This document shows, one piece after another, positions 8,115 through 62,570 of a stretch of DNA of 64,000 nucleotides. This DNA comes from Clostridia bacterium. GTDB taxonomy: Bacteria > Bacillota > Clostridia > TANB77 > CAG-508. Numbering within the stretch: the first letter of the stretch is position 1; each line of letters opens with the position of its first letter. Both the position numbers and the translations under genes were made by a program. Location of the stretch: positions 8,331-72,330 of the forward strand of contig JAZUKI010000004.1 of NCBI GenBank assembly GCA_045643205.1. The letters run 5' to 3'. The notes under the pieces were generated by a model. The model saw only the letters and a program-made list of their open reading frames with translations. It was not told where the DNA came from and made no database searches.

Positions 8115-8282
8115 TTCAAAAAGAATATATATGAAATATAATATGATTCAAAAGATAGAAAATATAAAACACAAAAGATTTAGATAAACAAAAGTGCAGA
8201 AAAACATAAATTATATTATATTTATTACTTAGTTTTTAAAATTTTAAACATAAATTAATTTATTTTTTAGGAGGAAAATTTT

Positions 8283-49450: not shown

Positions 49451-50479
49451 ATGAAAAGTGAAAACACTTTAAAAAATATTAATATTGAGAATTCAGAAAC
49501 CTTAGATGTTGAGAGAAAACTTAACATATCTAAGGCTATTGCTAGTATGTTAATAGATCAAATATATGAGATGCCATACACATACAATGAACTATTTATT
49601 AGAATTTATAATAAAGAATATAAAACTGCAGAGTTTTTAGAAACATCAAACCAAATTTATTATGATGGTAAGAACGATATAATATATTTAGATAGAACAA
49701 TATTAGAACAATCAGAAGATGAATTTATTGATGAATTTTTTATTCACGAAATAATTCATGCTTTACAAAAGTTTGGCAGTAGCAACAAAAGAACAGGATT
49801 ATGTTTTGATGCAGATTCGAAGCCTAAAGGTATAGGTTTGAATGAAGCAGTTATTCATTATATGTCATCAAAAGCTGTAAAAATGGTAATTGAAAGAGTT
49901 CAAGATGATAATTTAAATTATTACACAAATAACACTAAATATTATGATTATATGATTGGATTAGTAATTGAATTATTTGAATTTATTGATCCGTTGATTA
50001 CATATGAAAGCTGCATTTCAAGTAATGAAAAAGTAAGCATTTTGATGAATGACATATTTGCAGAGGATGCAAATCAAATTATTTGTAATTTTGATGAATT
50101 ATATAAAGAGTATCAAGATAGTAATTATCAAAACATGGCAGACATCTTTATAAAAACTCAAAAAATAATATATAAAAGATTCTTTTCTATCAACTATAAA
50201 AAAGCAGAAGATGCAGATCAATTAAATATGGTTGTTCAAAAAATGGAAGACTTCGAAAAAGTATTAGCAATAAGAGTTAAAGATGGAAAAGAAGTAACAG
50301 AAGATAAAGAAGAATTTGAAAATTTCAAAAATGAAATGCATAAAGAATATTTTCAAAAATACCTTGAAGTCGACAAACATCAAAAAAACACACAACTAGT
50401 TGTCGTTAAAGAAGGTTTACTTGCAAGATTTTTTAGATGGATAAAGGAAAAGTTTAATGAAAAAAATTCTACTAATTGA
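49451..50479 (+). CDS. Hypothetical protein with HExxH zinc-metallopeptidase-like motif
   Basis: FIHEIIHALQKFG (HExxH). Start moved to ATG 49451 (MKSENTLK) with RBS AAAGGAA. The 3' end overlaps the polA start by 23 nt. Confidence 0.45.
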   Translation: MKSENTLKNINIENSETLDVERKLNISKAIASMLIDQIYEMPYTYNELFIRIYNKEYKTAEFLETSNQIYYDGKNDIIYLDRTILEQSEDEFIDEFFIHEIIHALQKFGSSNKRTGLCFDADSKPKGIGLNEAVIHYMSSKAVKMVIERVQDDNLNYYTNNTKYYDYMIGLVIELFEFIDPLITYESCISSNEKVSILMNDIFAEDANQIICNFDELYKEYQDSNYQNMADIFIKTQKIIYKRFFSINYKKAEDADQLNMVVQKMEDFEKVLAIRVKDGKEVTEDKEEFENFKNEMHKEYFQKYLEVDKHQKNTQLVVVKEGLLARFFRWIKEKFNEKNSTN

Positions 50480-53141
50480 TGGCAATTCAATAATGAATAG
50501 AGCTTTCTATGGTATTTCTGCACCAATGAGTACTGAAGACGGAAAGCAAACTAATGCATTATATGGATTCTTAGCTATTATGTTTAAAAATATGGAAGAA
50601 GTTAATCCTGATTATATGTTAGTTGCATTTGACTCAAAAACAGCAGCCAACGTTAGAAAACAACAATATTCAGGGTATAAAGCATCACGTCATGGTATGC
50701 CAGAAGAACTTGCATATCAAATGCCTGAAATAAAAGAGATTCTTGATGCAATGAATATTAAACATCTAGAATTACCAGATTTTGAAGGTGATGATATCTT
50801 AGGAACAACTGCAAAAAAATTCGCCTCTAATGATGTTGAAGTTTTTATTCTTTCAGGAGATAGAGATTTATTTCAATTAGTTCAAGACAATATAACAATA
50901 AGAATTCCTAAAACAAAAATGGGAAAAACAGAAACAGAAATTTATGATGTTAAAAAAGTAGAAGAAGAATATGGGCTAGAACCATCTGATCTAATTGATT
51001 TAAAAGCATTGATGGGAGACTCATCAGATGAAATACCAGGTGCACCAGGTGTTGGTCCAAAAACAGCAACAACATTACTTCAAAAATTTAAATCAATAGA
51101 TGGAATATATGAAGCACTTCAAAATGAAGAATATGCAAAAGATTTTAAACCAAAAGTTAGAGAGAGTTTAGAAAATAATAAAGAATTAGTTGATATATCA
51201 AAAGTTTTAGGAGCAATAAAATTAGATGCAACTGTAACTGACAACATTGATGAAATTAAAGTTTCTGAATGGAATAAAGAAGAAGTTGTAAAACAATTTA
51301 ATAAATACAAATTTAAAAAATATTTAAGCAAATTTGGACTTGAAGGTGTTTCTACAACAAGTGATGCAGGCGAATCAATTATTGATGAAAAAGAAATCGA
51401 ACCATTCTTAAATGTAGAAATTATCACAGATTTAGCAGATGCTAAATTAAGTGATAAAATAATTATGTATGTTGAAACAAAACCAATAAATGATGAAACT
51501 AGAATTATAAAAAAAGACATAGTAGGAATTGCATTATATAATGAACAAAATAACAAAGTAGTTTATTTAAATAATCCAAGCGATGAACAATTAAAAGAAA
51601 TAGCAGAAAATAATTCTGAAAAAATTGGATTTAATTTGAGTGAACTTTATGTTTTATTAAAAGAAAAAAATATCAATTTAAATAATATGAAATTCAATGC
51701 TGAAGTTGCTGCATATAACATTAATCCGACAAATGCTAAACATACATTAGAAGAGATTGCATTTCAATATTTAGAAATTAATTTAGAACAATATAAAGGA
51801 GAAAAGCAAACTTCATTATTCGAAGAAAATGTTTCTAGTGATAAAAAAGAACTTGGCGCATATATTTTTGCTATAAAGAAATTTTATGAAATGGCATTAA
51901 AAAAATTAGAAGAAGAGGGTGCACTAAAATTATTTAATGATATTGAAATGCCATTAATTAGAGTTCTTGGCGACATGCAATTTAATGGAATGATGTGCAT
52001 AGAAGAAGTTCTACAAGAGTTTGGTAAAATGTTAAAAGAAGAAATAGACCAATTAACTCATGAAATATATGATGATGCTGGTGAAGAATTTAATATTAAT
52101 TCAACACAACAATTAGGCGTTGTATTATTTGAAAAACTGGGACTTCCAGCACCTAAGAAAAATAAAAAAGGATATTCAACAGATGTTGATACACTTGAAA
52201 AAATTGCTTATATGCATGATATCGTTCCTAAAATTTTACAATACAGAACTTTATCAAAATTAAATTCTACATATATAGATGGATTAATACCTTGCATTAA
52301 TCCAAAAGATAATAGAATACATTCAACATTCAATCAAACAATTACAACAACAGGAAGAATTAGTTCTACAGATCCTAATTTACAAAACATCCCAGCAAGA
52401 GATGAATTAGGAAAAAATATAAAGAAAGCATTTGTTCCAAAACAAGGTTATGTTTATATAGATGCTGACTATTCACAAATTGAACTTAGAGTTTTAGCAC
52501 ATATGTCTCAAGATGAAAATATGTTAAATGCATTTAGAAATGATGAAGATATTCATAGAGAAGTAGCTTCAAAAGTTTTTAACACACCATTTGATGAAGT
52601 AACCAAAGAACAAAGATCAAGAGCAAAAGCGGTTAACTTTGGCATTGTTTATGGAATAACAGGATTTGGATTGGCAAATCAAATTGGAACAACAAATAAA
52701 GAAGCAACAAATTATATTAATAGTTATCTTGAAAAATATAGTGGCGTTAATGAATACATGAAAAAGCAAGCCGATAAAGCTAAAGAAACTGGCTATGTCG
52801 AAACTTTATTTGGTAGAAGAAGATATATTTCGGAATTAAAATCTTCAAATTATATGGTTAGAGAATTTGGAAAACGTGCCGCTATGAATTCACCAATTCA
52901 AGGAACAGCAGCAGATATTATGAAAATTGCTATGAATAAAGTTTATGATGAACTAGAAAAAGCAAAGATTGATGCTAAAATTGTTCTACAGGTACATGAT
53001 GAATTGATCATTGAAGCTAGTGAAGAATGTAAAGAAAAAGCAAAAGAAATATTAAAGAATTCAATGGAAACAGCAGTTAAATTAGATATCCCACTAAAAG
53101 TTGAATTAGAAGAGGCAAAAACTTGGTATGATGCCAAATAA
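50457..53141 (+). CDS. polA: DNA polymerase I
   Basis: 894 aa. N-terminal 5'-3' exonuclease (LLIDGNSIMNRAFY), polymerase motif A (DYSQIELR) and motif B (RSRAKAVNFGIVYG). Confidence 0.9.
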   Translation: MKKILLIDGNSIMNRAFYGISAPMSTEDGKQTNALYGFLAIMFKNMEEVNPDYMLVAFDSKTAANVRKQQYSGYKASRHGMPEELAYQMPEIKEILDAMNIKHLELPDFEGDDILGTTAKKFASNDVEVFILSGDRDLFQLVQDNITIRIPKTKMGKTETEIYDVKKVEEEYGLEPSDLIDLKALMGDSSDEIPGAPGVGPKTATTLLQKFKSIDGIYEALQNEEYAKDFKPKVRESLENNKELVDISKVLGAIKLDATVTDNIDEIKVSEWNKEEVVKQFNKYKFKKYLSKFGLEGVSTTSDAGESIIDEKEIEPFLNVEIITDLADAKLSDKIIMYVETKPINDETRIIKKDIVGIALYNEQNNKVVYLNNPSDEQLKEIAENNSEKIGFNLSELYVLLKEKNINLNNMKFNAEVAAYNINPTNAKHTLEEIAFQYLEINLEQYKGEKQTSLFEENVSSDKKELGAYIFAIKKFYEMALKKLEEEGALKLFNDIEMPLIRVLGDMQFNGMMCIEEVLQEFGKMLKEEIDQLTHEIYDDAGEEFNINSTQQLGVVLFEKLGLPAPKKNKKGYSTDVDTLEKIAYMHDIVPKILQYRTLSKLNSTYIDGLIPCINPKDNRIHSTFNQTITTTGRISSTDPNLQNIPARDELGKNIKKAFVPKQGYVYIDADYSQIELRVLAHMSQDENMLNAFRNDEDIHREVASKVFNTPFDEVTKEQRSRAKAVNFGIVYGITGFGLANQIGTTNKEATNYINSYLEKYSGVNEYMKKQADKAKETGYVETLFGRRRYISELKSSNYMVREFGKRAAMNSPIQGTAADIMKIAMNKVYDELEKAKIDAKIVLQVHDELIIEASEECKEKAKEILKNSMETAVKLDIPLKVELEEAKTWYDAK

Positions 53142-56150: not shown

Positions 56151-56197
56151 AGATTTGTAACACCCTTATTAAAAAAAGGTTACAAATCTTTTTTTTG
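56151..56197 (+). terminator. Rho-independent terminator
   Basis: AGATTTGTAAC ... GTTACAAATCT is an 11-bp stem followed by TTTTTTTT. Confidence 0.7.
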
Positions 56198-56265
56198 CTT
56201 TTAAAAATTAGCAAATAATAGTAAAATTATAAGTATCAAAATTCAAAAGAAAGAGGAAAAAACTT

Positions 56266-57315
56266 ATGAAAAGAAAAACTATTATTTTATTACTTATCGT
56301 TTTAATGTTTGCATCAGTATTAGGCGGAACAAGTTTCGCAGCTAATTACATTCCACCAACAAATCCAACTGGTGACACAACTGTAACAGTAACAAAAACA
56401 CTAGAAGGAATTACAAACCCTGTTTCAGTTACATTTGGATATCAAGTAACAGCAGCTGAAGGAAATCCAGCAGCAGTTTCAGGAACACTTCCACTTACAG
56501 CTAGTATTGTATTTAACAATGCTGCACCAAATGAAGATGATGAAGTTATTGGAACAACAGAAGTTGACTTTGCAGGATTAAGTTTCCCAAAAGTTGGAGA
56601 TTACAAATTCATTATTTCTGAAGTTTCTACTACAAATTCAACACTATATCCAATAAGCAATGACAAATATTATTTATATGTTTCTGTTAGAAATGGAGAA
56701 GGCGATACATTAGTTGCAACAGTAGCACAACAAGGAATTCTTACAACAGATGAAACTCAAACAAAGGTTGACGTTGTTTATCCATCACCTGTTAACTTAA
56801 CATACATTACAGTAGAAAAAAGAGTAACAGGAAATATGGCTGACAAAACAGAATACTTTAAATTCAAAGTAAACATCGAAGGTGGAAACACAGGAGATAC
56901 ATATACAATTATTGGACAAGATACAAATGTTACATACAACGGATCAACATTTGCAGCACCTACAACATATACAGTAGGACAAGATAACTATGTATACTTA
57001 CAACATGGACAAACAGCAACTATTGGTTTGTATAAGAATTCAATTCCACAAATCCCAGTAAATGTAAAATACTCATTTGTTGAGCAAGATGCATCAACTT
57101 ACGAAACATATGTTGATGGAAGCACAACAAAATCAAAAACATCAGCTGAAAAGACAACAGTTCTTACAGCAGCTAACAACAAAACAACATTCGTAAACAA
57201 TAAAGAAGAAGCAACATTTACAGGAGTAGTTGTTACTATAGCTCCTTATGTAGCAGTAGTTGCAATTGCAGCACTTGGAATTGTTGTTGTTAAAAAATCA
57301 AAAAGAAGAGACTAA
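56266..57315 (+). CDS. Secreted pilin-like / cell-wall-sorted surface protein (candidate backbone pilin)
   Basis: 349 aa. Signal peptide (SFA/AN) and a Thr/Val-rich beta-type sequence. The C-terminus ATFTG + hydrophobic VVVTIAPYVAVVAIAALGIVVV + KKSKRRD resembles a sorting signal with a non-canonical motif. Confidence 0.5.
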   Translation: MKRKTIILLLIVLMFASVLGGTSFAANYIPPTNPTGDTTVTVTKTLEGITNPVSVTFGYQVTAAEGNPAAVSGTLPLTASIVFNNAAPNEDDEVIGTTEVDFAGLSFPKVGDYKFIISEVSTTNSTLYPISNDKYYLYVSVRNGEGDTLVATVAQQGILTTDETQTKVDVVYPSPVNLTYITVEKRVTGNMADKTEYFKFKVNIEGGNTGDTYTIIGQDTNVTYNGSTFAAPTTYTVGQDNYVYLQHGQTATIGLYKNSIPQIPVNVKYSFVEQDASTYETYVDGSTTKSKTSAEKTTVLTAANNKTTFVNNKEEATFTGVVVTIAPYVAVVAIAALGIVVVKKSKRRD

Positions 57316-57362
57316 TACAAGAATAAAATAAAAACAAAAGAAAATAACAAGGAAGGAATAAT

Positions 57363-57698
57363 ATGGAGAAGCCACTTGGAGTAGATATAGGAAAAATTAA
57401 ATTCAAAAGAAAATTATTTGGTGGATTTAATGAAATAGATACTTATATGAAACTAAAAGAAATTAATAATAAGTATTATGAATCTATTGAAATTGCTTCA
57501 ATGGAACACCAGATTATTCTTGAAAAAAGAGAAAAAGAAATCAAAGAGTTGAAACAACAACTTGAAGAGAAAGATAAAGAAATTGAAAGGCTAAATAACA
57601 ATGTTAGAAATTTAGAAAACATTGTTAGCCAAAGTCAAATTTATGAACAAATGAAAAACATTCAAGAATTAAATTCAAATAAAGATACAAAGGATTGA
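57363..57698 (+). CDS. Hypothetical coiled-coil protein
   Basis: 111 aa. Heptad-like EKREKEIKELKQQLEEKDKEIERL. RBS AAGGAAGGA. Confidence 0.4.
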   Translation: MEKPLGVDIGKIKFKRKLFGGFNEIDTYMKLKEINNKYYESIEIASMEHQIILEKREKEIKELKQQLEEKDKEIERLNNNVRNLENIVSQSQIYEQMKNIQELNSNKDTKD

Positions 57699-57700
57699 TT

Positions 57701-58273
57701 ATGCAACTTTTATTAGACGATAAAATTGTTAATAAAAGAATATTGGACCAACAATTAATTGATAAAAAAATTGAGAAGGCAAAATCTGTAAGAGATATAA
57801 AAGCTCTACTTATAAAAATAATAGTTGTTTTATTAGTTTTATACGGATTACATTTCTTTATATTTCAATTAGTTAGACATACTGGTCTTTCTATGAGCCC
57901 CGCTATAAATGATGGAGATCTATTATTTGTGTACAAATTAGATCGAAATTTTAAAGAAGGAGACATAGTATCGGTTAATCATGAAGGAAGACAATTAATT
58001 TTAAGAATAGTTGCAACAGGAGGTCAAACTGTAAATATTACTGATGATGGTAATATGTATGTTGATGAACATAACGAAGCACAAAAAGTTTTTTATGATA
58101 CGAAACCTGTTAGAAATTCTGGAATTAATTATCCATATAAAGTTGAAGAAGGAAAAGTTTTTCTATGTGGTGATTATAGAATAGATAGCTATGATTCTAG
58201 AATATTTGGGGCAGTTTCTTTAAATGAAATAGAAGGAAAGGTAATCACAACCTTAAAAGTAAGAAATATATAG
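57701..58273 (+). CDS. Signal peptidase I (S26) homologue, probably catalytically impaired (SipA/LepA-like pilus assembly factor)
   Basis: N-terminal TM segment. Box B GLSMSPAINDGDLL has the Ser. The box D position reads LRIVATGGQTV, with Leu where the general-base Lys normally is. Box E GDYRIDSYDSRIFG is conserved. Start set at ATG 57701 (RBS AAGGA, 6-nt spacing). Confidence 0.65.
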   Translation: MQLLLDDKIVNKRILDQQLIDKKIEKAKSVRDIKALLIKIIVVLLVLYGLHFFIFQLVRHTGLSMSPAINDGDLLFVYKLDRNFKEGDIVSVNHEGRQLILRIVATGGQTVNITDDGNMYVDEHNEAQKVFYDTKPVRNSGINYPYKVEEGKVFLCGDYRIDSYDSRIFGAVSLNEIEGKVITTLKVRNI

Positions 58274-58284
58274 GAGTATAAGAA

Positions 58285-58881
58285 ATGCAGAAAGGCAAAG
58301 TAATAATTTTTAATCGCATATTAATAATTGCAATGATAATTATTGCTAGCAATTTCTGCATTTTTTCTTATGCTCAAGAGCAATACAATCATGAAATTAA
58401 GGTTAATGTTACCAGCAAAGATGACATAGAATGTACATATTCTTTATACACAGAAGAAGACAAAAACAATCCAGATAAAATAGAAAATCTTCCAAAAAGT
58501 TTAGATGTTTTGCTAGATGGATATTCAACTGAAAAAGTATTTGAATTAAATGATTTGAAATTTACAAAACCAGGTGACTACATATTTTATATTTATGAAG
58601 GCGCGAGCGAGATACCAGAAGTATTTCCAGTTTCACCACAAAAATATGGCATTGGAATACATGTAGATTATCTACTAAATTATAATATACATATACAAGT
58701 AATTGATTGTACAACAGGAGAAAAAACAGATGGAGTTGTATTTAAAAATGAAGGACAGCTAATTGATTTTCCTAAGACAGGAGTAAAGTTAGATACCGAT
58801 CCATTCGTTTTTGTTACAGCAGGTTCAATTTTATTTTTAGCAATTGTAATTGCTATTATACCTAAAAGGAAAAAAGAATGA
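58285..58881 (+). CDS. Small secreted pilin-like protein with FPKTG sorting signal (candidate minor/basal pilin)
   Basis: 198 aa. Signal peptide (SYA/QEQ). C-terminus DFPKTGVKLDTDPFVFVTAGSILFLAIVIAIIPKRKKE is xPxTG + TM + positive tail. Confidence 0.55.
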   Translation: MQKGKVIIFNRILIIAMIIIASNFCIFSYAQEQYNHEIKVNVTSKDDIECTYSLYTEEDKNNPDKIENLPKSLDVLLDGYSTEKVFELNDLKFTKPGDYIFYIYEGASEIPEVFPVSPQKYGIGIHVDYLLNYNIHIQVIDCTTGEKTDGVVFKNEGQLIDFPKTGVKLDTDPFVFVTAGSILFLAIVIAIIPKRKKE

Positions 58882-59630
58882 TTATAAGAAAAGCAACTAA
58901 GATAGTTGATAAAATAATTAATTTTGTAATCATTATTCTATTATTAGTTTCAATAAGCTATGGAGCTTATGCAATTATTGATGGAGTAAATGTTCAGAAT
59001 GGTGCTACTTTATCAGAAGATATTAAAAAAAATGCACCATCTAATAAGTTTGCTCAATTACCAATTGATGAACTAAGAAAAATAAATTCTGATATATGTG
59101 CATGGTTAAATATTGATGATACATTGATGGATTATCCAATAACACAATATACAGACAATGATTATTATTTAAATAGAAATTATAAAAAGGAATTTGCTGC
59201 AGCTGGTACTGTATTTCTTGATTATAGAAACAATGTTGACTTTGATGATGACTATAATGTTGTTTATGGTCATAACATGAAGGGAAGTGTAATGTTTGGA
59301 GGAATAAAGAAATATGAAGATAAAGAATATTTCGATGCTCATTCAACAGGAACATTATTTACAGCTAAATGTAACTATAAATTAAATGTACTATTTTATG
59401 ATCGTATAAGTGCTTATGAATCAACTGTATACAATGTAACTCATTACAAAAATGGATGTAATGAAAATTTATTTAATTTTTTTAAAACACACGCTATTAC
59501 ACAAGGCAATATAGATAAATATGATGGATCAAAAATACTTGTTCTATCAACATGTACTACAAATCAAAACGAAAGAGTATTATTAGTATGCACTCTTTCA
59601 AAATTAGATGAAGACACCAATGAAGAATAA
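58878..59630 (+). CDS. Class B sortase
   Basis: 250 aa. N-terminal TM anchor. The long N-terminal segment with DYPITQ, VYGHNM (His) and LVLSTCT (Cys) is characteristic of SrtB-type enzymes. Confidence 0.8.
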   Translation: MIIRKATKIVDKIINFVIIILLLVSISYGAYAIIDGVNVQNGATLSEDIKKNAPSNKFAQLPIDELRKINSDICAWLNIDDTLMDYPITQYTDNDYYLNRNYKKEFAAAGTVFLDYRNNVDFDDDYNVVYGHNMKGSVMFGGIKKYEDKEYFDAHSTGTLFTAKCNYKLNVLFYDRISAYESTVYNVTHYKNGCNENLFNFFKTHAITQGNIDKYDGSKILVLSTCTTNQNERVLLVCTLSKLDEDTNEE

Positions 59631-59643
59631 TTAGGAGAAAAAC

Positions 59644-61833
59644 TTGAGAAGTAAAATATTTTTAATTTTAAATATGTTAATTACTTTAATCATTGTTTTA
59701 ATCATTACTTGTTTAGGTAATGATTGTTTAGCATATTCAAAATTAGAAATATTTGAATCTTCTAAAGTAGCTGAAGCTTATCAAAGTGGAAAAAAATATC
59801 TTTTCAGAATTAAACAAAATGATGGAACATATAGTTATTATGAACGCGCTGAAGATTTCCAAGCATGGCAATATCCACCTATTGAAGCAAATCCATCTAA
59901 TTATTACGATGAATTAACCATAGAATTTTTACAACCAGAATGCCAATTAACATCATCAATTACTACTTATTATAATTATCCATTACATTTTGTAACAGCA
60001 CCTGTATCTGATTCTGATTATGGATATCAAGGAACACCAGGAACTAGTGCAGTTATAAAAAGAGCTAATAGCTATACCGGAAACATGTTTACAACAACAA
60101 ATGGAGAATTAACGTTTGAAAACTTAGTTATTGATGGTGGCTGGCAAGACAATAGAAAAGGAACAGCAACTGGAGGAGCATTAATTAATAATGATGGAGC
60201 TGCATTAGTTACATTAACAAATGTGATTTTAAGAAATAATAATAATACAACTAGTGAAGGTGGAGCTATAAGAGCATGTGGCGATAATGAATTTGAATTT
60301 AATAATGTTCAAATCACAAATTGCCAAGCAAGCAATGGAGGAGCTATATATTGTACTAATACAACAGCTACTTATAATAACGTAACAGTTACAAATTGTT
60401 GTGCAACAGGATCAGGAAATCAAATAGCAAGTGCTATTTATAGTTCACCATCAGATTATTCATACTATAATAGATTTAATGGATTAACAATAACAGAATG
60501 TTCAGCTATAAATGCGACAGGTTCAGGTTCTGCATTCTTTGTAAATAGCCAAGGAAATTATATTGTTTCTAATACAGCTAGTGGTGCCCCAGGTTTAGTT
60601 ATAACTAATAATTATAGTTCAGGAGATAAAGCTGGTTTTGCAATTGTAAGAGGATCATGGTATCCAAAAATTGAAATATATGGGGACATGGTAATAGATA
60701 ACAACTATACAGGATGTAGCTTTAATAAAAATAATAAAGCAACTAAAAAAGGTGATGAGGTCAACCTTTTCATCCAAAAAGAAGCAGAAGATCAAACATT
60801 AGTTACATTTCACTATAGTCCTACAAGTAATAGTAAAGTAGGTGTTGTAACTGCTTATACTATCCAAGGAACAAGTAATTATAAAACAGAAGATGCAGCT
60901 ACAAAAGAAGCAACAATATTTGCAAATGCAGATAATAGCATAACAGGTTTAGAAAATTACTTTTATGATGGAAACACATCAATTACAGGTAAAACAGATG
61001 GAAGCGGTCATGCTGTTTTTGAAGGAGATTCATCTTTATCACCATTAGGAAGAGTAATTATAAAATATATTGATTACGATGCAGGAACTGCAACAGCTAT
61101 AAATAGTATTTCAGGACCAATCGAGTATGTAAAAGATGGCCAATCAACTACTGAATACAATGTAAATTATACAAATGGAACAACAATAGAAAGAATTGTT
61201 GATCCTAATACAAATATCAATGTATATTTATATTGGATACCAGACGGAGTAACTGTAAGTTATACTTTATCAGCAGGTGCAACCTCAACATTTACAGTTA
61301 ATCAAGCAAATGGCGGTAGAGTATCAGGACAATTAAATCCTAGAGAAACAATAACAATACTTTATGAACATGGAACAAAACCAGCTGGTAACAAAACTTC
61401 AGACTTAACATTTAAACATGTAGACTCAGGAAACTATGCAGATAAAACAAAGAAACATAGTTACAGAGTAGTATATACTTTAAATGGAGAATCGAAAAAT
61501 GAAGTATACGAATTAGCAGATGGCGAAACTCAAAAAATCACAATAGATCAAGGTACAACATATACAATTTCATTAGATGAGACATCAGATGGAAATTATG
61601 GTATTACTTATACAATGCCTAGTGGAAACACAGCTAATCCAACAGTAAGCTCAGCAAATGTATCAATTTCAGGAACTATAGATGCTGATGGAGAAGGTCA
61701 GGTAACATTTACACATACATTGAATAAAGCAGTAGAGACAGGCTTTACAGACAATATTCCAATGATTTGTATGCTTAGTGGAATAGTTATAATATCGCTA
61801 TTATTAGTAAAGAAATTTAAGATAAAAGATTAG
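59644..61833 (+). CDS. Large secreted adhesin-like protein with parallel beta-helix (PbH1-type) repeats and C-terminal sorting-like signal
   Basis: 729 aa. Signal peptide. Repeated N-x-T/GGAI-type segments (TSEGGAIRACGDNEFEFNNVQITNCQASNGGAIYCTN...). C-terminus AVETGFTDNIPMICMLSGIVIISLLLV + KKFKIKD. TTG start after AGGAGA. Confidence 0.5.
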   Translation: MRSKIFLILNMLITLIIVLIITCLGNDCLAYSKLEIFESSKVAEAYQSGKKYLFRIKQNDGTYSYYERAEDFQAWQYPPIEANPSNYYDELTIEFLQPECQLTSSITTYYNYPLHFVTAPVSDSDYGYQGTPGTSAVIKRANSYTGNMFTTTNGELTFENLVIDGGWQDNRKGTATGGALINNDGAALVTLTNVILRNNNNTTSEGGAIRACGDNEFEFNNVQITNCQASNGGAIYCTNTTATYNNVTVTNCCATGSGNQIASAIYSSPSDYSYYNRFNGLTITECSAINATGSGSAFFVNSQGNYIVSNTASGAPGLVITNNYSSGDKAGFAIVRGSWYPKIEIYGDMVIDNNYTGCSFNKNNKATKKGDEVNLFIQKEAEDQTLVTFHYSPTSNSKVGVVTAYTIQGTSNYKTEDAATKEATIFANADNSITGLENYFYDGNTSITGKTDGSGHAVFEGDSSLSPLGRVIIKYIDYDAGTATAINSISGPIEYVKDGQSTTEYNVNYTNGTTIERIVDPNTNINVYLYWIPDGVTVSYTLSAGATSTFTVNQANGGRVSGQLNPRETITILYEHGTKPAGNKTSDLTFKHVDSGNYADKTKKHSYRVVYTLNGESKNEVYELADGETQKITIDQGTTYTISLDETSDGNYGITYTMPSGNTANPTVSSANVSISGTIDADGEGQVTFTHTLNKAVETGFTDNIPMICMLSGIVIISLLLVKKFKIKD

Positions 61834-61924
61834 TGTTAACATAATTGAAAAAAGTAAGCTTTTATGCTAAAATAAGTACGTATTAAACCTTATAATTATA
61901 ATAATATTCTTAGGAGGTTATATT

Positions 61925-62527
61925 ATGGAAAAATATAAGTACACAGAAGAAGATTTAGATCTTGTTTCTTGGGAAAGAGTAGATGAGTTCATTAATAAAA
62001 TTTATAATGAAGTTTCAGAATATCTTACAAAAAACAAATTAAGTATTAAGTATATTGTTCCAATTTTAAGAGGTGGTGGAATTCCAGCAATAAAACTTTC
62101 ACACATGTTTGATGCAGTAAATCTATTACCAATTCAATTAAAATATAATACAAGCAATAATTTAATTGAAAAGAAAATCTCTTTAGATGATTATGAAAAT
62201 ATTAAAGAATTAAATGACAATGAGGTTATATTATTAGTAGAAGGAAATCATTGTACAGGAAGAACTTCTAATATTGCATGTAAGAGCATTAAAGAAAAGT
62301 TTGGCGACAATGTTAAAGTTATATATGTTTCTCTAACAAGAGATTATACATATAAAGATTCAGTTGAAGGAACAGTTTTTGATACATGGGCATTAACAAC
62401 AAATGAATCTAAAAGATTAAGCAAAGAAGAATGCGATAAATTAAATATTAACTATCATAAAGTTTCAGTTTATCCTTGGGAAAATGCCAAGGAAGAACTT
62501 GAGGAATTAAATGAATATGATGCCTAA
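61925..62527 (+). CDS. Phosphoribosyltransferase-fold protein (type I PRTase-like)
   Basis: 200 aa. VPILRGGGIPA and VILLVEGNHCTGRT resemble PRTase PRPP-binding loops. RBS AGGAGG. Confidence 0.45.
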   Translation: MEKYKYTEEDLDLVSWERVDEFINKIYNEVSEYLTKNKLSIKYIVPILRGGGIPAIKLSHMFDAVNLLPIQLKYNTSNNLIEKKISLDDYENIKELNDNEVILLVEGNHCTGRTSNIACKSIKEKFGDNVKVIYVSLTRDYTYKDSVEGTVFDTWALTTNESKRLSKEECDKLNINYHKVSVYPWENAKEELEELNEYDA

Positions 62528-62540
62528 GTTTAGGCTTTTA

Positions 62541-62570
62541 AAGGGCAAAATATTTTGCCCTTTTATTTTT
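62541..62570 (+). terminator. Rho-independent terminator
   Basis: AAGGGCAAAA-ta-TTTTGCCCTT is a 10-bp stem followed by TTATTTTT. Confidence 0.65.

Follow-up and report, generated by a model that had tools for sequence, protein, structure and literature searches.

A probable sortase-polymerized pilus operon of the Streptococcus pyogenes T-antigen type in an uncultured Clostridia bacterium

Does a compact cluster of six genes in a Clostridia bacterium encode a pilus polymerized by a class B sortase, or a set of surface proteins that such a sortase attaches singly to the cell wall? The cluster occupies positions 56266–61833 of a 64-kb stretch of contig JAZUKI010000004.1 (assembly GCA_045643205.1), hereafter called the window. 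An earlier sequence-only reading of this DNA had proposed a sortase-dependent pilus island with a composition like that of the FCT region of Streptococcus pyogenes. We re-examined the cluster through the homology and fold of its parts, its catalytic and linking residues and its gene order. On these grounds, the locus is most likely a single operon whose products would build a sortase-polymerized pilus of the FCT/T-antigen type known from S. pyogenes.

The cluster consists of six intact open reading frames (ORFs) on the forward strand, tightly spaced or overlapping and provided with ribosome-binding sites; position 56266 is the start codon of the first and position 61833 the end of the stop codon of the last. 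In order, they encode a secreted protein of 349 amino acids (aa), a 111-aa coiled-coil protein, a signal peptidase I homologue, a secreted protein of 198 aa, a sortase and a large 729-aa protein, an order and set of sizes that agree exactly with the sequence-only reading. We then scanned the ORFs of all six frames of the window, down to a length of 60 aa, with a regular expression for sorting tails, that is, xxxTG followed by a hydrophobic stretch and basic residues. As had been claimed, such tails were present on all three exported proteins, and they occurred solely there, in the 349-aa (ATFTG), 198-aa (FPKTG) and 729-aa (AVETG) proteins, each of which also has a signal-peptide-like N-terminal segment. 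None of the three signals contains VPTG, and the QVPTGV sorting model TIGR03065 reached 13.4 bits, against a cutoff of 21.35.

The first part of the proposed machinery is the 349-aa protein (56266–57315), which consists of a signal peptide, an N-domain, a C-domain and the sorting signal, with T319 and G320 as its final residues. It is rich in threonine (15.2%) and valine (12.0%), as previously noted, and matches the Pfam family DUF7601 (5e-10). Compared with the PDB, the single sequence matched two S. pyogenes T-antigens, T18.1 and T3.2, at 2e-4. A search among 5.8 billion proteins gave 21 homologues with 30–47% identity, and the family profile and all conservation counts given below are based on these together with the 349-aa pilin itself (22 sequences). 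The profile matched the T18.1 tandem structure at 2.7e-28, T18.1 at 1.5e-14, Spy0128 at 1.8e-12, T3.2 at 2.9e-11 and T13 at 1.2e-10, the matches being near full length. The part of the profile covering the N-domain also matched FctB, and that covering the C-domain matched the last domain of Cpa. By these matches, the 349-aa protein is assigned to the FctA/T-antigen family of S. pyogenes backbone (major) pilins, in line with its earlier identification as a pilin. In the sorting signal of the family, which has the consensus xLTG, the threonine, the glycine and a proline at +7 are invariant.

In S. pyogenes, the sortase Spy0129 joins K161 of Spy0128, the experimentally defined linking lysine, to the threonine of EVPTG (PMC3019223). 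The profile–PDB alignment paired the segment TKVDVVY of the 349-aa pilin with SKVPIQF of Spy0128, so that K167 corresponds to K161. A lysine occupies this position in 16 of the 22 sequences, and the remaining six have one between one and four residues away. K167 is consequently our candidate linking lysine, and its conservation supports the identification of the protein as a polymerizing subunit.

The sequence-only reading had suggested looking for intramolecular isopeptide triads in the two smaller secreted proteins, and for the 349-aa pilin the answer differed between its domains. In the C-domain, K185, E273 and N311 form a candidate triad, kept in 15, 21 and 21 of the 22 sequences, respectively. 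K185 lies four residues before the glycine of a VxG motif and N311 eight residues before the threonine of the sorting signal, the same spacing as in Spy0128. The corresponding Spy0128 residues K179, E258 and N303, as well as K36 of its N-domain, carry the numbers that we take to be those of Kang et al. 2007; N168 and E117 of Spy0128 are named in PDB titles. In the N-domain of the 349-aa pilin, K44 and E119 are present, but a serine (Ser174) is found at the position of Asn168, and this domain would lack the bond.

The second part of the machinery is a sortase of 250 aa (58878–59630), whose gene overlaps that of the 198-aa protein by 4 nt. It scored 169.8 bits with the class B model TIGR03064, above the curated cutoff of 153.75 bits, and is by this measure a class B enzyme, as had been proposed. 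It has an N-terminal membrane anchor and the predicted catalytic residues His132, Cys226 and Arg233. The best PDB matches were Listeria SrtB Lmo2181 (1.4e-31), Spy0129 (3psq, 2.2e-31) and 4y4q (6.6e-31), with the HNM and STC motifs and the arginine aligned; 4y4q is labelled in the PDB just as "Sortase, SrtB family". The enzyme thus stands no farther from Spy0129 than from any other sortase. His132 and Cys226 align with His126 and Cys221 of Spy0129, the class B pilus polymerase of S. pyogenes (PMC3019223), and Arg233 aligns with the arginine of 4y4q.

We also considered other systems in which sortases take part. A class C, or SpaA-type, pilus was ruled out by the class of the sortase, which passed the class B model only, and by the proteins of the window, among which there were no Pfam matches to SpaA or Cna_B domains. 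A haem-uptake system of the Isd type was likewise rejected. The locus shares its sortase class with the Isd systems of Staphylococcus aureus or Bacillus anthracis (SrtB), but neither it nor its surroundings has NEAT-domain proteins (searched with Pfam and NCBIfam), NPxTN signals or haem-uptake genes, and the sorting signals present are of the xxxTG type.

The third component is the signal-peptidase homologue (57695–58273), which matched Peptidase_S26 (7e-26) and the signal peptidase I model TIGR02227 (97 bits) and has an N-terminal transmembrane anchor. Its gene could start at TTG 57695, giving 192 aa, or at ATG 57701, giving 190 aa. The ATG, with AAAGGA 6 nt upstream, is the probable start. 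The protein collection had no entry for the 192-aa version. The best PDB matches were SipA (4n31, 2e-22) and LepA (4k8w, 6e-22), the former from S. pyogenes, whereas true signal peptidases matched at 6e-6 (4nv4) and 3e-5 (4me8), which upholds the claim that the protein is SipA-like. In the PDB alignments, Ser66 is found at the nucleophile position, where SipA has Asp48, and Leu103 at the position of the general-base lysine, where SipA has Gly85. The homologues in two related loci (L001 and L002, see below) likewise keep the serine and lack the lysine in the alignment. The first 22 residues of S. pyogenes SipA and the whole of Bacillus subtilis SipS were entered by hand in the multiple sequence alignment, and the assignments of catalytic residues rest on the PDB alignments. 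Because the general-base lysine is missing, we predict that the protein does not act as a Ser/Lys-dyad peptidase. S. pyogenes SipA is itself non-catalytic and is essential for polymerization (PMC4049620).

The 198-aa protein (58285–58881) gave no family match above threshold, and its sole close relative was a 99% identical fragment in a European Nucleotide Archive (ENA) metagenome. Its relationship to pilins emerged from profile and structure comparisons. With hhalign, residues 33–131 aligned to the N-domain of the backbone pilin family (97.7%, E 1.3e-12). An AlphaFold2 (AF2) model, built with the backbone pilin family as the alignment, had a predicted local distance difference test (pLDDT) score of 80 and showed an eight-stranded beta domain at residues 37–155. 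The best Foldseek matches of this model in the PDB were FctB3 (8k6t) and FctB (5ttd and 3klq), with E about 2e-5 and TM-scores of 0.62–0.65 on the target, followed by Spy0128 and T18.1. The protein would accordingly be a small, single-domain, FctB-like pilin, and the pilin-like immunoglobulin (Ig) fold, whose absence the sequence-only reading would have counted against itself, is present in the model. K147, in the segment GEKTDGVVF, lies in the acceptor loop and is a candidate acceptor. K39, E105 and N155 (the last in VVFKN) fall on the positions of the Spy0128 N-domain triad and form a candidate triad here; natural FctB has no intramolecular isopeptide bond (PMC7900414).

The largest protein of the cluster, of 729 aa (59644–61833), had been described as a beta-helix adhesin. 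Its proposed parts are a signal peptide, an N-terminal region, a right-handed beta-helix at residues ~90–350, an insert at 470–580, an Ig domain at 585–695 and the AVETG signal. It gave no sequence match in Pfam, NCBIfam or the PDB, and a word-indexed search found one homologue. An exhaustive HMMER search among 1.8 billion representatives yielded 64 matches, seven of them with E <1e-30, namely its own entry (P0023) and six relatives of 326–606 aa. The xETG signal is conserved between the protein and its relatives. Most of the other matches were giant surface proteins that share residues ~90–320; further ones were DUF7601-bearing proteins that matched over residues 585–722. The Pfam Beta_helix family was found in two of the relatives. 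The AF2 model was poor overall (pLDDT 52), but residues 90–335, which form repeated strands, mostly had values of 65–91, with two 10-residue blocks at 49 and 54. Foldseek matched the model to Rhombotarget A (1.6e-4) and then to phage tailspikes and pectinases, which are beta-helix proteins. The sequence contains three GGA[ILV] and two F/YxNVxI/VxNC motifs, which are typical of Pmp-like GGA[ILV]/FxxN repeats. An attempt to recognize a pilin fold at the C-terminus by hhalign to the pilin family aligned the sorting signal alone (probability 78%); the pilin-like C-terminal domain is proposed because of the HMMER matches to DUF7601-bearing proteins. Taken together, and given a weak model, there is moderate support for an adhesin that combines a beta-helix with a C-terminal domain of the pilin type.

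The insert of this protein is a feature in its own right. It comprises about 110 aa (residues ~470–580; 61051–61383), is all-beta in the model, which is of low confidence there, and is absent from the closest full-length relative (P0024). Pfam searches with sub-segments of the adhesin, including the insert, gave nothing significant.

The arrangement of the cluster is not peculiar to the window. The order pilin–(coiled coil)–SipA–(second pilin)–sortase–(adhesin), in which the genes in brackets are not always present, was found in five further low-GC loci. Two of them (L001 and L002) belong to Clostridia metagenome-assembled genomes (MAGs) with 27% GC and match the window in gene order. The other three are metagenome loci with 25–27% GC in which the gene content varies: L018 has pilin, coiled-coil protein, SipA, sortase and adhesin beside polA, without the small pilin; L019 has pilin, SipA, second pilin and sortase, without the adhesin; and L020 has pilin, SipA and sortase only. 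The recurrence of the pilin–SipA–sortase order is not chance, and this variation in content shows that the conserved core is made up of the pilin, SipA and the class B sortase, the other three genes, for the small pilin, the adhesin and the coiled-coil protein, being accessory.

Each component of the machinery has, as judged from sequence, a counterpart in the FCT pilus operon of S. pyogenes (PMC7900414, PMC3019223, PMC4049620), which in its FCT-2, FCT-3 and FCT-4 forms comprises Cpa, SipA/LepA, FctA/T-antigen (Spy0128), the class B sortase SrtC1/Spy0129 and FctB. The predicted similarities extend to a backbone pilin of the same family with a linking lysine and a C-domain Lys–Glu–Asn triad, a SipA-type protein without the Ser/Lys dyad, a sortase of class B that has His, Cys and Arg, a single-domain minor pilin with the FctB fold, and sorting signals of the xxxTG type. 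There are also differences. The pilin gene comes first in the window and the adhesin gene last. The proposed tip is a beta-helix protein, whereas that of S. pyogenes is Cpa, a thioester-domain adhesin to which it would be related by the last domain only. The sorting motifs TFTG, PKTG and VETG take the place of xVPTG or LPXTG. The SipA-like protein has Ser66 and Leu103 in place of Asp48 and Gly85 (PMC4049620), the small pilin has the K39/E105/N155 triad and not the proline-rich tail of FctB (PMC7900414), and the backbone N-domain lacks the asparagine of the first Spy0128 isopeptide. There is an extra gene for a cytoplasmic coiled-coil protein, and neither RofA/Nra/MsmR-type regulators nor genes for fibronectin-binding proteins were found in the flanks. 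The description of the island as FCT-like therefore applies to the pilus operon core and not to the regulators, the fibronectin-binding proteins or a Cpa-type tip.

The sequence-only reading had also called such islands poorly characterized outside streptococci, which is out of date: the VR-10B locus of Clostridium perfringens (cnaA, fimA, fimB, a signal peptidase gene and the class B sortase gene srtB1) has been shown to build a pilus (PMC8088525). The operon in the window can be likened to it in gene content, both being clostridial operons in which three pilins are encoded together with a homologue of signal peptidase and a sortase of class B. Unlike the window, the VR-10B locus includes a two-component system, and the tip of its pilus is a Cna-type collagen adhesin. 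A SipA/Lep homologue is needed as well by the Streptococcus pneumoniae PI-2 (pitA, sipA, pitB, srtG1, srtG2) and Streptococcus agalactiae PI-2b pili (PMC7900414), which have other accessory subunits and are streptococcal only.

By analogy with these systems, assembly might proceed as follows. The three secreted precursors would be exported by the Sec pathway and stay tethered to the membrane through the hydrophobic and basic tails at their C-termini. The sortase would form an acyl-enzyme with the adhesin (AVET-), to be resolved by the epsilon-amine of K167 of a 349-aa pilin, and successive 349-aa subunits, joined T319-to-K167, would then make up the shaft, each stiffened by a spontaneous K185–N311 isopeptide bond whose formation E273 would catalyse. 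The SipA-like protein would act as an obligatory membrane chaperone, as SipA does in streptococci. Elongation would end when the FctB-like 198-aa pilin enters through K147, after which its FPKTG signal could be used by this sortase or by a housekeeping sortase to fix the fibre to peptidoglycan. The beta-helix at the tip would mediate adhesion to a ligand.

Several observations weigh against a pilus of this kind. The signals ATFTG, FPKTG and AVETG depart from the streptococcal xVPTG. The isopeptide bond in the N-domain of Spy0128 has no conserved counterpart, an arginine being found at the position of its lysine in 17 of the 22 sequences, and the serine kept at position 66 of the SipA-like protein may confer a residual or altered activity. 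The 198-aa pilin has neither the proline-rich tail nor the LPXTG-type motif of FctB, and its role as the basal or anchor subunit is proposed from the fold of a model and from its size. The model of the adhesin is of low confidence, and its suggested place at the tip follows analogy. No housekeeping sortase was found within the 64-kb window.

Some of these points would fit a wall-anchoring cassette, in which the class B sortase attaches the three xxxTG proteins as monomers and no polymer is made. Class B sortases are often anchoring enzymes, that of Clostridioides difficile, SrtB, anchoring its substrates to peptidoglycan, and the sortase of the window is by sequence as near to Listeria Lmo2181 as to Spy0129; its presumed substrates have signals unlike xVPTG. 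Against this, the main substrate is clearly homologous to a polymerizing backbone pilin and has the linking lysine, and the trio of putative tip, shaft and base proteins fits a pilus. A SipA-type protein is moreover present in all six low-GC loci, and such proteins are known only from pilus loci, where they are needed for polymerization (PMC4049620, PMC7900414). We therefore consider a cassette for anchoring monomers unlikely.

A pilus in which the minor subunits have other roles, for example with the 198-aa protein decorating the fibre or serving as a second tip and the 729-aa protein fixed to the wall on its own, has only a slim chance of being correct. The order of the subunits is inferred by analogy only, and the related loci show the accessory subunits to be dispensable for the core, as the small pilin is missing from L018, the adhesin from L019 and both from the core-only L020. 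On the other hand, basal pilins are the best structural matches of the 198-aa protein, which retains K147 in its acceptor loop, and the adhesin ends, as tip pilins do, in a pilin-type domain followed by a conserved xETG signal. It is very improbable that the cluster is a decayed or silent remnant, neither expressed nor functional. Weak promoter evidence and the very few relatives of the 198-aa pilin and the adhesin could be read in that way, but all six ORFs are intact and have ribosome-binding sites, the catalytic and linking residues are preserved, and the near-identical fragment of the 198-aa gene comes from an independent metagenome.

If the locus indeed encodes a polymerized T-antigen-type pilus, the class B sortase/SipA/T-antigen architecture of streptococci and C. 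perfringens reaches into the uncultured low-GC Clostridia of gut-type communities. This would not overturn the current understanding but add a further example of a known pilus system, with natural variants that could inform its mechanism: a SipA that keeps the serine without the lysine, a backbone pilin without the N-domain cross-link, an FctB-like pilin apparently able to cross-link itself, and sorting signals without VPTG that a class B sortase of the pilus type would use. With its beta-helix, the proposed tip protein may represent a new class of adhesin. The interest of the locus lies mainly in this unusual adhesin and in relatives of the system in another phylum.

These relatives are 14 loci (L003–L016) in rumen or gut MAGs of Candidatus Saccharibacteria with 40–48% GC, which encode pilins of the same family (32–38% identity) whose sorting signal is xLTG. 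In 13 of them, the neighbour of the pilin is a class B sortase homologue, and the remaining one, L011, ends before a sortase could appear; examples are found at 8121–9857 of L005 and 7959–10085 of L003. In many of these loci, an ORF of ~100 aa lies between pilin and sortase. By hhalign (97%, E 4.7e-11), this "mini-SipA" corresponds to the N-terminal half of the SipA-like proteins of Clostridia, and it has at its C-terminal end the motif GK(I/V)IAxLxVRG, which is SipA's own C-terminal motif. Upstream there are genes for conserved membrane proteins of 121 and 540 aa. In several loci, the sortase ORF seems to stop short of the catalytic cysteine. The literature that we searched contained no description of sortase-built pili in Saccharibacteria; the recently reported "Pam" pili of the Candidate Phyla Radiation (CPR) are a different, donor-strand-exchange system.

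A bolder proposal, which we put forward tentatively and hold to be rather doubtful, is that uncultured bacteria of the gut and rumen possess a distinct clade of T-antigen-type pili, as yet undescribed, which the pilin–SipA–class B sortase module defines. Such pili would have a new Pmp-like beta-helix tip with almost no relatives, a recurrent coiled-coil partner in the cytoplasm, by which assembly could be tied to a particular place in the cell, and an FctB-like base that, in contrast to FctB, can crosslink itself. The module would have crossed phylum boundaries, being found also in Saccharibacteria, in which SipA has been cut to ~100 aa. If this were true, CPR episymbionts would build sortase pili and would have exchanged them with Clostridia. 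Should they prove real and functional, the Saccharibacteria loci would give a first indication that CPR bacteria make pili with sortases.

The coiled-coil protein of 111 aa (57363–57698), encoded between the pilin and sipA genes, has neither a signal peptide nor a transmembrane segment, and database searches gave no family or PDB match past generic coiled coils. Homologues occupy the same gap in L002 (9117–9422) and L018 (9154–9399), so that the gene is found in three of the six low-GC loci, and they share the conserved N-terminal motif KIKFKKKMFGGxDELD. By eye, this motif bears some resemblance to the N-domain motif of DivIVA and to GpsB, but Pfam and the PDB returned generic coiled coils only, and hhalign to hand-entered B. 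subtilis DivIVA and GpsB sequences gave the same register with a probability of <1%, leaving a DivIVA/GpsB-like assignment unsupported.

The cluster had been described as lying between two strong terminators, of which the upstream one was confirmed. A stem-loop followed by U8 at 56151–56197 on the forward strand (dG -15.1 kcal/mol, z -4.38 relative to shuffled sequences) is the intrinsic terminator of the upstream polysaccharide deacetylase gene and the 5' boundary of the operon; a consensus scan missed this hairpin because its stem is AT-rich. Between it and the backbone pilin gene, there is a promoter-like sequence, TTTAAA-16-TAAAAT (56200–56227, forward strand), which matches the consensus at nine of 12 positions. 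Such sites are no commoner in the region than in shuffled sequences, and it is weak evidence for a promoter. A strong terminator after the adhesin gene was ruled out, being absent both from the consensus scan and from the folding analysis, in which the sequence directly downstream (61834–61900) folded no better than chance (z +0.6). The next terminator lies at 62540–62563, beyond the gene that follows. That gene (61925–62527) encodes a 200-aa phosphoribosyltransferase (PRTase)-like protein with a weak match to uracil phosphoribosyltransferase (1.6e-3) and has its own ribosome-binding site and a promoter-like site at 61845–61873. With the first real terminator at 62540–62563, read-through from the pilus operon and co-transcription of the PRTase-like gene are possible.

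The wider flanks contain housekeeping genes, for PolA, a DUF1292 protein, Ham1 and the polysaccharide deacetylase upstream, and for the PRTase-like protein, a Nudix protein and an HD protein downstream. A polA gene lies within a few kb of the pilus operon both in the window (50457–53141, upstream) and in L018 (14508–17077, immediately downstream), the two being 50% identical. The genes between polA and the pilus operon differ between the window and L018, and the association may represent a loose ancestral linkage or a coincidence.

Across the full 64 kb, no Rfam family attained its gathering score. The window has a GC content of ~27% and its genes are strongly co-directional, nearly all long ORFs lying on the forward strand, with a positive GC skew, as in the leading-strand pattern of a low-GC Firmicute.

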